A program made the translations under genes and the position numbers. The notes under the pieces are model-generated. The model searched no databases. It was not told the origin of the DNA and saw only the letters and a list, made by a program, of their open reading frames with translations. From Octopus vulgaris (taxonomy: Eukaryota), in contig OX597816.1 in NCBI GenBank assembly GCA_951406725.2, positions 162,564,001-162,628,000 of the forward strand: a DNA stretch of 64,000 bases, in the 5' to 3' direction. Shown in pieces: positions 7,300 to 55,800 of the stretch (position 1 is its first letter; every line of letters begins with the position of its first letter).

Positions 7300-7340
7300 C
7301 AATAAATGGTGGGGTTGTGTTGATCGCACGTGGAGAAATG

Positions 7341-7600
7341 ATAGGCAAGGAAAAATTATAAAAAGGCAGAATGCTAAATTGAAGGTAAATTTTAATGAAA
7401 ATGGGTGTATGGAAAATTTTGAAAAATTTTTTAAAATATTTCTTTTCACCTTACCATTCTTGAAAAGTCGCAGTGCAACGAAAACCGATTTGAATTAACA
7501 TATATATATTTTTTTTATTCTTTAAAATTTTCCATACACCCATTTTCATTAAAATTTACCTTCAATTCATTCTGCCTTTTTATAATTTTTCCTTGCCTAT
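7341..7600. mobile_element. Inverted-repeat element (MITE-like), arms about 80 bp
   Basis: 7341-7420 (ataggcaaggaaaaattataaaaaggcagaatg...gtatggaaaatttt) is the reverse complement of 7524-7600. Confidence 0.75.
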
Positions 7601-7632
7601 ATATATATATTAGATATTAGCCGGTGTTTTTC

Positions 7633-7669
7633 AAGCGATGAATAGCTTTGCGTAAACCATGGTTCGCTT
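7633..7669 (+). ncRNA. Minimal type-I hammerhead-like motif with variant core AUGAAUA
   Basis: aagcg-ATGAATA-gc-ttt-gc-G(t)AAA-ccatgg-TT-cgctt: 5-bp stem I, 2-bp stem II, palindromic stem III. One extra T interrupts GAAA. Confidence 0.55.
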
Positions 7670-7883
7670 TGTTCTCTTACTTTATTATCATTTTATAATC
7701 ATCTCCTAATAATGACTTTTATGACTCTTATTACTACCTCAGTCAATCTAAATGTATACATTTGTCGTTACCTGTCATAATCTTTTTTTTATTTGCAATG
7801 TGCATTTTCGTTGATTTTTCATATTTTACCCTAACATTTCCCCGTGTATTTTATATTTTCTTGTAACATATTTCTACTATATA

Positions 7884-7949
<66 letters not shown>

Positions 7950-25099: not shown

Positions 25100-25135
25100 C
25101 TTTCTGTCGAAGAGCGTAGGCTCGAATCGTAAAAG
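25100..25135 (+). ncRNA. Degenerate minimal hammerhead-like motif
   Basis: cttt-CTGTCGA-a-gagc-gtag-gctc-GAAT-c-GTA-aaag: stems I and II intact, two core substitutions. Confidence 0.5.
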
Positions 25136-25218
25136 TGTTTCTCACTTCCCGAGCGTTAAACTAATACATCTGCTTGTTGTTTACACACCTGGCTTGGTTT
25201 TTTTTTTTTGTAAATTCT

Positions 25219-25257
<39 letters not shown>

Positions 25258-25259
<2 letters not shown>

Positions 25260-26818
25260 AAATTAAAGATGGAAAATAGACACACTTTACATAGGTTTAA
25301 TATAATTCTTAATATATTGACCGGTTTCGCTTTCGCTATTCATGATATTAAGGTTTACTTATTTGAATATGTATTTTCTTAAGAAGAAATTTTTGTCCAT
25401 ATTGTGTGTAATGAGATTTACGAGTGAATGACTTCACAAGTAGAAAAATAAGGGGCGGTAATTGGTTATCATTATTATTGTTATTGTTGTGGGCGAGGGA
25501 GATAACTGTTCAGCTTTCGATAAGGGGAGGGGAATATATACATACACACAAAATGAAGTTACGAAAAACTTGTTTAATGAGGGGATTTATGTACAGTGAT
25601 GTAATCGTGAACTGAAATATGTAAAAGGATAAAAGTTGGTTATGCGTGCATATTAAGACGTGTTCTGTATTTTTCCATGAAAATAGTTTCTTTCTTTAAA
25701 CGTTCTTGTGGAGAGATTGTGTCTTTGCACTTGTAGAAGAGGAAGACTGTGAAATTTGGTTATATGTTCACTGAGAGGAATTTGCCTGTATTGCGGGAAA
25801 CGGATTTGCTCTTTATGTCGAGTAGTTCTCCGTCTCAAGGTCATACTCGTCTATCCAATATAGTTGTGTTCGGAAACTGAGCAAGTTATTACATAAATTA
25901 GGTTCTCAGAGGCACAAGTGAAACTAGTTTTAATTGTGAACCTCTGTCTTTGCTTGAAAAGGAAATTCGAGCCTTCAAGTAAATTGGGCAGGTTCCACAG
26001 TTTGGGCGTCCATATTTTTTAACCGTTGGTTTCGTGGTTGTTTGTAAAGCTTCGCATTTGTTAGCATTCTCTTTAGCGATTTTTGTTGCTTTTTGCATTT
26101 GATGAGTTTGTGAGTTTTCAGGATGTCGTTCATTTTTGGATCTCTAGTTAGTAAAGGAAGATTTTGCACAATAGTTTTGAATGCCTCACTGTTACTGGGG
26201 TTGTGTGTTGATATAAATAATAGTGTTTTGAGATGAGGTGTGGTGTTATGTTTTGTTGTTCTTAGTGTTTTCATGTCTAATTTTTTTCGCACGTTTAATT
26301 CCCTCGTCTTTAATTGAGGGTGGATATTGTCTTTCAGTAAGCGTTGTTTGGAGGTCTTGAAGACGAAGGTCCCGAGTAGTTCTTTCAGACACGATTGTGC
26401 AAATACTTTTTGCCAAATTAAAAGGGATATTTATTTTGATGTGTTTCTAGTGGCATGAGCTAAAGACGAGATACTGTTTTGAGTCAGTTGGTTTATAATA
26501 GATGTCAGTTATAATTTCATTGTTGACGTTTTATGTATCATGATGTCTAAAAATGGGAGCTGTTCTTCGTTATATTCCATTGTGAATTGAATGTTACTAT
26601 TTATGTCATTTCGTGTTGATTTGAAATCCAAAAGTTTGTCGATGTTCTCTTTCAAAATGATAAAACTGTCATCCAGGTATCTTTTCCAATTTTCTCTTAT
26701 GTAAAGGCAAAATGGGTAACCATATTTGTGAAGTATCACTTCATATAAGGTGAATTCAAAATAACTCATTATTAGTTTCGCAAGAACAGGGCCTGCTTTC
26801 GTTCCCATTTGCAATTCC
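25258..26818 (-). mobile_element. Penelope-like retroelement, 5'-truncated (RT, Cys linker, GIY-YIG endonuclease, 3' UTR)
   Basis: Frameshifted motifs MGTKAGPVLA, WKRYLDDSF, IQFTME..EEQLPFLDI, CGTCP, YVITCS..EHNYIG.TS.TLRRR...HKEQIR. Confidence 0.9.
25314..25348 (-). ncRNA. Minimal type-I hammerhead-like motif in the 3' UTR of the Penelope-like element, variant core AUGAAUA
   Basis: Minus strand atatc-ATGAATA-gc-gaaa-gc-GAAA-ccg-GTC-aatat: GNRA-capped 2-bp stem II, palindromic stem III accggt, GUC site; same strand as the ORF. Confidence 0.7.
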
Positions 26819-27015
26819 GCGGCCGGCTGGTTGATGTTCATTTCAATGCTGAACCACTAGCTCTGAAGTTGGTAACCCATAATAAAATCGTGTTTCGAGC
26901 AAGTACAGAATCATATCTACCAAGCCTAAAGTGCACATGGAACGCTCTTTGAGTTGCAGTTACCGATTCGTTGTTCTTGATAGAAAGCGCGATGCTCGTC
27001 TGTTCATTCAATATG
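26819..27015 (-). pseudogene. Tc1/mariner (rosa-type) transposase N-terminal HTH fragment
   Basis: Manual translation EHRAF/IKNNESVTATQRAFHVHFRLGRYDSVLARNTILLWVTNFRASGSALK*TSTSRPR, ending in a GRPR-like linker. Confidence 0.75.
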
Positions 27016-49098: not shown

Positions 49099-50467
49099 AT
49101 TGATTATTGATTGATTGTAGTTTCAGCTCATGAGCTGTGGCCATGCTGGGGCACCGCCATTTGGTGTTGCTACATGGTTTTACTTCACGAATGCTTTTTA
49201 GCAACTGCCATTTGGTGCATGAGAGAGTTCGATGCAGCTGCCCTCATCTGCACCTCCTGCTGTGAAGTTGGTTCATCTGGGATACCTGACAAGAAGAGAT
49301 CCAGTTTCATTTTAAAGACATCTGCATCCACCCCATGCAGGTCTCTTAGGTTCTTCGGGAGGATATTGAAGAGCTGTGGGCCTCGGAAGTCCAGGCTATC
49401 ACAGTATCTTGTCCTACATCTTGATGGCAAATTTGGAGTTCTAGGCACCACGCAGTGGCGCCCAGTTCTGGCATTTGTGTAACTCTCGATGCCAAAGTTT
49501 GAGACAAGTCCCTCCAGGATCTTCCAGATGTATATTATGGCACATCTTTCTCGCCTACGCTCCAAGGAATAGAGTTTTAATCTCTTGAGTCTTTCCCAGT
49601 AGCTTATATTCTGCATAGAGGCTATCTTCTTCGTGTAGCTACGTTGGATCGCCTCAAGTTCTGTGATCAACTTGACACTGGATGGGGACCATAGCTGAGA
49701 GCAATAGTCAAAGTGGCTTAGGACAAGTGTCCTCCAGAGGACCATCATGGTTTCTTGTTCTCTTGTTCTAAAGGTTCTGAGAATCCATCCGGCCAGTCGT
49801 CTACATTTCATTGCCAATTTAGCAACATGTACACGAAAGGTTGCGTCATCACTCATGTAAATACCCAGGTCACGCACTGATTGTGCCTCTGGGATTGCAA
49901 TTCCTCCGGGTCCAGTGTATTCATTGGGTATTGCATTTAGTTTTGCATGCTGATAGTATAAAGCTTGAAACTTTTCAGCATTGAACTGCATGCTATTCTT
50001 TTCAGCCCACTTGTATATTTTGTCCAGCTCACATTGCAGGCGTTTAGTGTCCTCAGGGTTCTGTATTGCCTGTGAAACTTTTGTATAATCTGCATAACTT
50101 GTGATCGTGCCTCTCTGCGTGGCTGAGGGCATGTCTGAGAGGGCCATTATGAACAGTAGTGGTCCCAAAACAGTGCCCTGCGGAACACCGCTCACTATTT
50201 GCGTGTTAATGGAAGTTCTCATGGCCCCATTGGCTACTACCACCTGACTTCTATCTTTCAGAAAGTCATGAAGCCATTCTCCCAGTTTTCCAACTATGCT
50301 AAGATCACGCAGTTTGTGACATATCATTCCATGATCGACTTTATCAAAGGCCTTTGCAAAGTCGAGATATATCACTTCCACATTTGAGTGGTTGAGCAGT
50401 CGTTTCAGCACCCAGTCATAGTGTTGTAGGAGCTGAGTTAAGCAGCTTCATCCTGGTCGGAAACCAT
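49099..50467 (-). mobile_element. CR1-clade LINE, 5'-truncated, with complete 3' end
   Basis: Begins at HGFRPG*SCLTQLL; RT ORF at 49185-50411; short 3' UTR with a stem-loop and (caat)n tail. Confidence 0.93.
49185..50411 (-). pseudogene. LINE ORF2 reverse transcriptase fragment (408-aa open frame, catalytic YADD changed to YADY)
   Basis: YLDFAKAFDKVDH, SGVPQGTVLGPLLF, SYADYTK, MQFNAEK, VRDLGI and DYCSQLWSP motifs. Confidence 0.93.
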
Positions 50468-54721: not shown

Positions 54722-55800
54722 TAATAATAGGTGTTGTTAGGTGGACAAAGAACGAGTTTGAGGAATTGGATAGGAAAACTTGAAAAATGATGATAATTAA
54801 CAAGGAACTACACCCCAAAAGTGATGCTGACAGACTGTATGTGCCTAGAAACAGGGGCAGAAGAGGTCTTATAGGATGCAAGATCTGTGTTCTTAATGAG
54901 AAGAACAGTCTGGGATGGTACATCAAACAGCAGAGTGAATCCTTGCTTGCCGCTGTTAGAATTAATATAATACCTACCGAAAATGTGATGCACCCACAAA
55001 CATTTAAGAAAAAAGATGAAGAAGAAAGAGTAAACATCTGAAAAATGAAACTACTGCATGGGTAATAACTCAGAGAAATCAAAGGAAAAGACAAGATCAA
55101 CACTTGGAGATGGCTAAGAAGACGTGATCTGATATACAGCGCCCAGGAACAAGCTCTGAGAACTACTAACACCAAATTACAAATAGATAAAAAATAGCGA
55201 TTCGCCCCTTTGTAGAATGTATGGTAGCAGAAACGAAACAATCGCACATGTTGTGAGTACGTGTTGCATGCTGGTCCAAAAGTATTGCAAAAGAAGGAAC
55301 GACAACGTGGCTAAGTTCGTCTACTGGAGGCTATGTGAAATGTACGGCCTGAACAGAGCACGGAAATGGTACGAACATAAACCAGAAGGTGTCACTAAGA
55401 ACAAAGAACATAAGATACTGTGGGATTTAACAATTCAATGTGAATCCTTAATTGAGGCTCGGAGACCAGATATTGTTGTGGCAGATAAAGGGAAAAAAAG
55501 GAAACCAGGATCATGTGACAAAACACTAGAAAAGATAACTAAAATTGCAAGAATGTGGGCTGAGGAAAGTGTCTGTCATTCCAGTAGTTGTAGGGACACT
55601 CGGAACACTGGCAACCAAGTTCGAGAAATATGTCTAAGGAATCGAAATTGGCATGAGAGCAGAGCAAGCGCCAAAAACTGTTCTGCTGGGGACAGCTAGG
55701 ATTTTGAGATTGGTAATTGGATGTTGAATGTCTCCCACGATAAATAGCAACCAAATATCAAAGCTTATAATGTGCAGAAAGAGACACTGTGAGACCTCTG
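54722..55800 (+). mobile_element. R4/Dong-like non-LTR element, 3' fragment (post-RT region, decayed CCHC, RLE)
   Basis: LHPKSDADRLYVPRNRGRRGL, AQEQALRT, ETIAHVVSTC, RRNDNVAK, ILWD..IQC...IEARRPDIV, VIPVVVGTLG and LLGTARILR, with stops and frameshifts. Confidence 0.88.

Follow-up and report, generated by a model that had tools for sequence, protein, structure and literature searches.

A hammerhead-like motif with an A3-U8 pair and a family-wide GUAAA core in the pseudo-LTR of a Penelope-like element of Octopus vulgaris

The window analysed here is a 64,000-nt stretch of the Octopus vulgaris genome (assembly GCA_951406725.2, 2.8 Gb and microsatellite-rich; contig OX597816.1, positions 162,564,001 to 162,628,000, forward strand). 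At 7633-7669 it holds a hammerhead-like motif whose core reads A3-U8 in place of C3-G8 and G-U-AAA in place of GAAA, and which raises three questions: what it is part of, whether its core is peculiar to one copy or belongs to a family, and whether it cleaves. The role of hammerheads in Penelope-like elements is itself an open question (PMC8557442; PMC7761336; PMC11167929). The features of the locus are as follows.

7615-7878, + strand: solo pseudo-LTR (5'-truncated 3' end) of an EN+ Penelope-like element, about 264 bp, assigned from its copies and their ORF linkage
7633-7637, + strand: 5' strand of stem I, AAGCG, pairing with CGCUU at 7665-7669
7638-7644, + strand: core AUGAAUA, read as A3 U4 G5 A6 A7 U8 A9; the A3-U8 pair replaces C3-G8, in the family columns too
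7645-7651, + strand: stem II, GC-UUU-GC, 2 bp (G10.1-C11.1 and C-G); loop UUU here, UUC, CUUC and CUAC in subfamilies
7652-7656, + strand: G-U-A-A-A replacing GAAA (G 7652, U 7653, AAA 7654-7656)
7655-7664, + strand: palindrome AACCAUGGUU, read from the sequence
7656-7663, + strand: self-complementary helix III region ACCAUGGU, predicted to pair between two RNA copies
7664-7665, + strand: cleavage site 7664/7665, 3' of U17 (7664), predicted from the motif only
7665-7669, + strand: 3' strand of stem I, CGCUU, partner of 7633-7637
7878-7946, no strand: (TA)n target microsatellite at the 3' end of the pseudo-LTR, read from the sequence

The sequence and pairing of the motif proved to be as the initial annotation had written them. 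A full hammerhead descriptor matched once in the window and never in 100 Markov-simulated windows; a search of 7600-7880 against Rfam returned no hammerhead family at E ≤ 10, and the output of the whole-window Rfam scan was dominated by microsatellite matches. U4 G5 A6, A9, A15.1-U16.1, and H17 are present as in type I hammerheads (some of these columns were preset by the collecting pattern), as are a Watson-Crick 3-8 pair (A-U here, not the consensus C3-G8), covarying stems I and II with G10.1-C11.1, and, as in minimal type I motifs, a palindromic helix III that permits a dimer. The contiguous G12 A13 A14 is absent from the window motif, with its G-U-AAA, and present in older subfamilies. An alternative register pairing A14 with U17 was ruled out, as the 26 copies with C17 cannot form that pair. 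The minimum-energy fold of the 7633-7669 monomer is not the hammerhead fold (z = 0.29); computed energies are −17.8 kcal/mol for a swapped dimer formed through the palindrome versus −0.4 kcal/mol for the monomer hammerhead fold, and the unconstrained dimer minimum, at −27.0 kcal/mol, is a different fold. On the reverse strand, the same interval forms a long hairpin that outscores 199 of 200 shuffled sequences (z = −2.9).

The unit that carries the motif is one of several hundred pseudo-LTR copies left by a Penelope-like element. Its last 17 bases occur exactly 709 times in the genome (control, 0), and of the 40 scored among 1599 candidates, 39 were other matches to 7615-7878 at 91-94%. The initial annotation had described a unit of about 240 bp, bounded by (TA)n and free of any ORF, and had allowed for a non-autonomous family. 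The (TA)n flanks hold, with a shorter tract at 7599-7610 on the 5' side; the length is instead about 264 bp, and the absence of an ORF is true of the unit itself, which is nonetheless the pseudo-LTR of an ORF-bearing element. Many copies run on upstream into a frame with reverse transcriptase (RT) motifs, a C-x4-C-x2-C linker, and a GIY-YIG domain; an ORF lies upstream of the pseudo-LTR in L009/L061, L021/L062, and other loci, and a start codon lies downstream of the unit in six of eight copies examined. In full-length copies the pseudo-LTR lies about 120 nt past the ORF stop and, at the 5' end, about 27 nt before the ORF start. Same-direction repeats stand at both ends of L286 and L289, the latter also carrying an inverted copy, and inverted pairs occur in L061, L063, L079, and L080. 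The 510-aa frame of L061 scores 25.7 bits against Pfam GIY-YIG, above the cut-off of 22.6; RVT_1 scores are 22.9 bits in L061 and 28.1 in L062 (E 8e-5 and 2e-6), both under the cut-off of 29.6, and a search of solved structures gave no match. An RT followed by a C-terminal GIY-YIG in a single ORF, the CX2-5CxxC linker, the partial tandem of pseudo-LTR, ORF, and pseudo-LTR with inverted copies, and the (TA)n insertion bias seen in the flanks of the nearest loci (L001-L030) all agree with the EN+ Penelope-like elements. Since the sequence is linked to an ORF and repeated at both ends, we take 7615-7878, with near certainty on these sequence features, as a solo pseudo-LTR of an autonomous element and not as a separate non-autonomous family; the Neptune/Nematis type is assigned by features in place of a reference tree.

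That reading leaves very little room for a non-autonomous retrozyme- or SINE-like family, an idea suggested by the fact that most copies are ORF-less units of about 250 bp with clustered 5' ends. The same sequence serves as the pseudo-LTR of ORF-bearing copies in the same subfamilies, 11 of 89 aligned copies reach at least 480 nt upstream of the predicted cut and into the ORF, and the window contains no tandem array of the unit. Head-to-tail tandem units lacking a coding partner in cis, as in non-LTR retrozymes, were not what we found: copies are dispersed, and either solo or ORF-linked. The proposal is largely refuted, and we consider it barely credible.

Several neighbouring observations concern other repeats. 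Some copies share flanks (L003, L004, L008, L015, and L027 on contig C29; L247 and L249-L251 on contig C10), and these clusters are likely segmental duplications; the C29 group has a common broken palindrome (CAUA). Directly upstream of the unit, 7340-7599 is a fold-back with an inverted repeat of 78% over 260 bp. Its centre (7460-7495) contains a hammerhead-like motif with U3-A8, now decayed, which is probably a remnant of another Penelope family. At 565-717 a perfect-looking inverted repeat surrounds a (TA)n core and is built from a common short repeat present twice; several microRNA models match it at scores under their thresholds. Frames at 49188-50447 (− strand) and 55187-55696 (+ strand) resemble, by eye, RT regions of non-LTR retrotransposons.

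The extra U had been noted as an interruption of GAAA in this one copy. As a copy-level defect it is refuted: GUAAA is the derived state of the family and a more unusual feature than A3-U8. The GUAAA core pattern occurs exactly 298 times genome-wide versus once for a reversed control, and of the 30 nearest loci, a sample biased towards the query, 29 carry this U. Sampling by the 3' end instead, at 90 of the first 100 places listed among the 709, gave 56 copies that reach the core; 42 of these have U, 11 G (two of them read by eye), 2 A, and 1 a deletion. In contigs from three runs, filed under three organism codes, no letter other than U reaches 10% at this position, where depth is low. By descent along the endonuclease tree, U 7653 occupies the place of the ancestral G12; G 7652 could act as G12, with the U as an insertion. 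A search for GUAAA in families with a CG loop gave 21 matches against 14 in the control and revealed no second GUAAA family, only a small family with an extra G. A separate U3-A8 family (L462-L465, L468) combines a stem II of 4 bp with an additional G between stem II and GAAA, a base that is present in 5 of 10 loci. In a metagenome scan, one of the 80 matches listed (at least 119 exist) had three flanking pairs, which we take as chance.

Trees built on the endonuclease coding region, with the motif excluded, trace the history of this core. The first tree used 73 rows of 112; the second used 84 rows of 146, with GUAAA copies thinned to one in four and rows lacking a scored motif dropped. The lineage forms a ladder, at the base of which are G3-C8 copies (13 rows, and 2 more with one side mutated); A3-U8 arises after this base (node 99/91), and the 3' core then runs in the order GAC-GAAA, GCA-GAAA, GCG-GAAA, and GCG-UAAA. 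The endonuclease tree thus shows a change from G3-C8 to A3-U8 and, later, from GAAA through GGAAA to GUAAA. Along the ladder stem II passes from a bulged form to 3-4 bp and back to 2 bp, loop III runs through CG, CGCG, CAUG, CAUUG, and CAAUUG, palindromic or nearly so throughout, and stem I is rewritten several times with its pairing kept, as are stems I to III repeatedly. Position 17 is A in older subfamilies. A few young copies (L133, L143, L153, L184) carry GCC-GAAA; on the short pseudo-LTR tree they may be either side branches or reversions.

The initial annotation had also proposed A3-U8 as a feature at the level of the lineage, present in several Penelope-like families, and here the genome agrees: A3-U8 cores with CGAAAC number 2092 against 289 in the control, and 30 such loci include several distinct flank types. 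C3-G8 cores with CGAAAC number 906 (control, 184), and U3-A8 cores 2651 (control, 0; the pattern was longer than for the other states). The genome count for G3-C8, 345, is not above its control of 571, so only flank- and tree-verified copies were used for this state, and it occurs in the 13 endonuclease-linked copies at the base of the window motif's lineage. All four Watson-Crick pairs therefore occur at 3-8 in this genome, and cores with a pair other than C-G are more numerous than C-G cores, as counted with search patterns that were not identical. The segment likewise proved to be multi-copy, its core conserved and its stems covarying, and not the single-copy or unconserved stretch that would have told against the annotation. 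The commonest C3-G8 cores (L201-L230) come from an abundant repeat in which stem I is hardly apparent. A second A3-U8 motif lies in the window itself:

25225-26892, − strand: 5'-truncated RT-EN remnant of a related, separate Penelope-like family, with another A3-U8 motif in its 3' pseudo-LTR, from protein and motif comparison

Its core is at 25343-25337 (− strand), with GAAA intact. The motif at 7633-7669 had been called independent of this one, which holds in the phylogenetic sense. Even so, the elements are related and their ribozymes homologous, the proteins being 52-61% identical; a blastn comparison found nothing significant in common between the two pseudo-LTRs. In a sister family the pair is U3-A8, and in the 25314 family it is A3-U8. 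A single clade of all A3-U8 rows (66 versus 17 rows) was rejected (p-AU 0.0014), in a test for which one long-branch row was dropped and the constrained group was chosen after the tree had been seen; the rejection of this forced clade, together with the G3-C8 ancestors, indicates that A3-U8 was gained on the GUAAA lineage separately from the 25314 family, by what the sequences suggest was either convergence or reversion to an older A-U state. The 25314 motif itself (25312-25343, − strand) has A at 1.1 where 26 of 30 loci have G, and its first stem I pair is broken; adjoining that element, at 25105-25190, is a degenerate copy of the L201-L230 repeat.

Whether the motif still mattered once the U was fixed can be judged from substitutions within the GUAAA copies. 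Five motif substitutions are each common to at least 12 of 98 such copies: the two-sided change in stem I, a single loop II change, alternation of U and C at position 17, and a C-to-U change at 7658 after which a wobble pair remains. All five fit the hammerhead model (chance 0.02 if transitions alone are considered, 0.002 for all changes). In 89 copies, the stem I positions 7635/7667 read G-C 17 times, A-U 70 times, and mixed twice, a 2x2 table that represents one inherited change. Of the 98 copies, 71 have U at position 17, 26 have C, 1 has A, and none has G, in keeping with the NUH rule; common indels fall only in loops, which are prone to slippage; and core and stems are intact in 63 of 98 copies, at a median divergence of 3.7% from the majority. 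These are few events in one lineage, and the collecting regex preset some core columns; as moderate evidence, they suggest that the fold of the GUAAA motif was likely kept under selection after fixation of the U. The presence of all four Watson-Crick pairs at 3-8 in the genome, and of stems I to III rewritten time and again without loss of pairing, likewise speaks for selection on the fold. The converse account, in which the ribozyme died when the U was fixed and has since drifted, its compatible changes being luck and its spread possible since cleavage was dispensable, draws on the stepwise erosion of the motif (stem II from 3-4 bp to 2 bp, an extra base, then G to U), the little time since fixation that the 3.7% divergence implies, the small subfamily with the broken CAUA palindrome, and the success of Naiad elements, which thrive without canonical hammerheads (PMC8557442). 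We think it rather improbable, given that five of five common substitutions, the two-sided stem I change among them, fit the fold (p about 0.02), and that CAUUG was followed by a perfect palindrome, CAAUUG.

The 5' ends of copies bear on which RNA is inserted. Of the 89 copies aligned, 37 have their 5' end 21-60 nt upstream of the predicted cut; the end rate in this interval is 0.025 per base at risk, 18 times the downstream rate of 0.0014 (p 2e-23), and beyond the interval on the upstream side it is 0.0004. The window copy begins at about −50 and belongs to this class, and roughly 10 of the 37 hotspot ends coincide with TATTA microhomology to the target. There is no peak at the cut, with 3 of 89 ends within 5 nt of it, and 60 of 89 copies extend upstream past it. 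In the 25314 family, ends measured at 70 of 442 places spread over −60 to −170, with no hotspot and only 4 of 70 at −60 to −21; a further 4 of 70 lie at +1 to +3, on TA-like sequence. Since ends lie upstream of the cut and do not peak there, uncleaved RNA is the likely template, and uncleaved transcripts starting just upstream of the motif probably filled that role. For an Anolis element studied in vitro, uncleaved RNA is described as the main template, with internal initiation of reverse transcription and a requirement for protein in cleavage (PMC11167929). Contigs from runs only guessed to be RNA span some of the stretch; they contain neither a splice joint nor a pile-up of ends and speak neither for nor against this. 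Use of the new GU as a splice donor is unsupported, those contigs containing no such joint. An efficient ribozyme that cuts the transcript and so sets the RNA end used for insertion would explain the NUH rule at position 17, the 3 of 89 ends near the cut, and the 4 of 70 at +1 to +3 in the GAAA-bearing 25314 family. We judge it very improbable, however: most copies run past the cut, near-cut ends are few and in the 25314 family fall on TA microhomology, and published mutants predict low activity (PMC2553840; PMC9901934).

That expectation of low activity rests on the core itself. The general base is G12, and the G12A mutant cleaves some 1e5- to 1e6-fold more slowly (PMC2553840); with U in the place of G12 by descent, this weighs against activity of GUAAA. 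In a full double-mutant scan the 3-8 pair was rescued only by a G3-C8 swap (PMC9901934), so A3-U8 is expected to be slow. The 2-bp stem II and the failure of the monomer to fold as a hammerhead point the same way. On the other side, variants with U3-A8 or U13a that occur in nature are reported to be neutral or active (PMC3088659), although the insertion tolerated there is U13a and not 12a; minimal Penelope hammerhead motifs are reported as slow in any case (PMC4209133); and an extra base beside G12 arose separately in the U3-A8 family and in one row of Fig. S3 of Cervera and de la Peña. From these sequence comparisons, measurable cleavage by the GUAAA form seems possible, though we lean slightly against it.

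Alternatively, GUAAA may be catalytically dead and its fold kept for another job, such as RNA dimerisation or binding of the element's protein. The U in the ancestral G12 position, stems and palindrome that covaried after it, copies that contain the uncut motif, and ribozyme mutants that still insert in vitro (PMC11167929) are all consistent with this. It sits less easily with the lack of any subfamily-level change in other catalytic-core bases and of any G at 17, a constraint that a purely structural role would not require, and with an upstream G that allows a register shift and extra bases that recur beside G12. We hold it unlikely, while giving it real weight.

The reading we somewhat favour, on the sequence record, is a solo pseudo-LTR of an autonomous element that retains a fold-selected minimal type I hammerhead, slow-cutting if it cuts at all and working as a protein-helped dimer. 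Transcripts would begin 20-60 nt upstream of the cut site; the RT-EN protein would nick (TA)n and prime reverse transcription at a pseudo-LTR end within uncleaved RNA; and priming at the 5' pseudo-LTR, with run-off at the RNA 5' end, would yield solo copies of about 250 bp like that in the window. Two RNAs could pair via the palindrome, completing helix III, with the upstream G assuming the role of G12 and the U bulging out, to give an attenuated hammerhead aided by the element's protein, whose cleavage would be dispensable during insertion. More broadly, we put at even chances that either a hammerhead works with A3-U8 and a U between G12 and A13, or catalysis was lost while the fold was selected non-catalytically, in either case leaving a fossil ladder of intermediates.

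The lineage is a natural series in which the position of the general base is disturbed and the family nevertheless made several hundred copies. If this reading is true, the ladder from G3-C8 through A3-U8 and GGAAA to GUAAA would record the stepwise rewiring of a ribozyme active site in a spreading retrotransposon lineage, and four or five of its natural motifs could tell whether cleavage, the fold, or neither is needed. Should GUAAA cleave, the core consensus and the CUGANGA and GAAA descriptors would be too narrow, and elements elsewhere that pass as "hammerhead-less" may carry variants that were overlooked. Through the clustered 5' ends, the internal-initiation model can be tested on genomic data.

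The present analysis adds GUAAA, the history of this core, and the hotspot of copy ends, which may be new in print as well: neither A3-U8 nor the GUAAA core was found in a comparison that excludes Lunse 2017 (the largest variant survey), Przybilski and Hammann 2007, Nelson and Uhlenbeck 2008, and supplementary file 1 of Cervera. A literature search for the C3A+G8U hammerhead double mutant found nothing relevant, and the supplements of Perreault et al., whose figures may be images, gave no text match to either core state. The element is by its sequence a Penelope-like member, and the motif is a variant that, with its broken GAAA, may or may not belong among the active hammerheads.

The closest described relatives are the minimal type I hammerheads of metazoan Penelope-like pseudo-LTRs (Cervera & de la Peña, 2014; PMC4209133), which share the pseudo-LTR location, the short stem I, G10.1-C11.1, a palindromic helix III predicted to need a dimer, mostly solitary copies, and natural covariation at 3-8, reported there as U3-A8. 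The window family differs in its A3-U8 with G3-C8 ancestors, G-U-AAA, 2-bp stem II, and lack of an extra base between A9 and G10.1; the rows compared in Fig. S3 of that study show only C3-G8 or U3-A8, and GAAA (AGAAA in one). Natural core variants (Perreault et al., 2011; PMC3088659) include the same 3-8 covariation, a tolerated U insertion in the GAAA region, and a 2-bp stem II; there the insertion is named U13a and the pair is U3-A8, whereas here the U follows G, accompanies A3-U8, and is found in several hundred copies. The EN+ Neptune/Nematis elements (Craig et al., 2021; PMC8557442) are described with the same RT, CX2-5CxxC linker, C-terminal GIY-YIG, partial tandem and inverted pseudo-LTRs, and (TA)n targeting, the clade here being assigned by features only; the window core would escape the CUGANGA and GAAA descriptors given in that work. 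The Anolis Poseidon element PAc (Frangieh et al., 2024; PMC11167929) likewise has a hammerhead near the junction of pseudo-LTR and ORF and AT-rich targets, and it is reported to use an uncleaved-RNA template, an internal RT start, and protein-assisted cleavage, all of which would apply to the window family by inference. In PAc, as described, the 3-8 pair is C3-G8 and the motif overlaps the start codon, whereas in the window family the cut site lies about 245 nt upstream of the start codon and the 5' ends of copies cluster just upstream of the motif.
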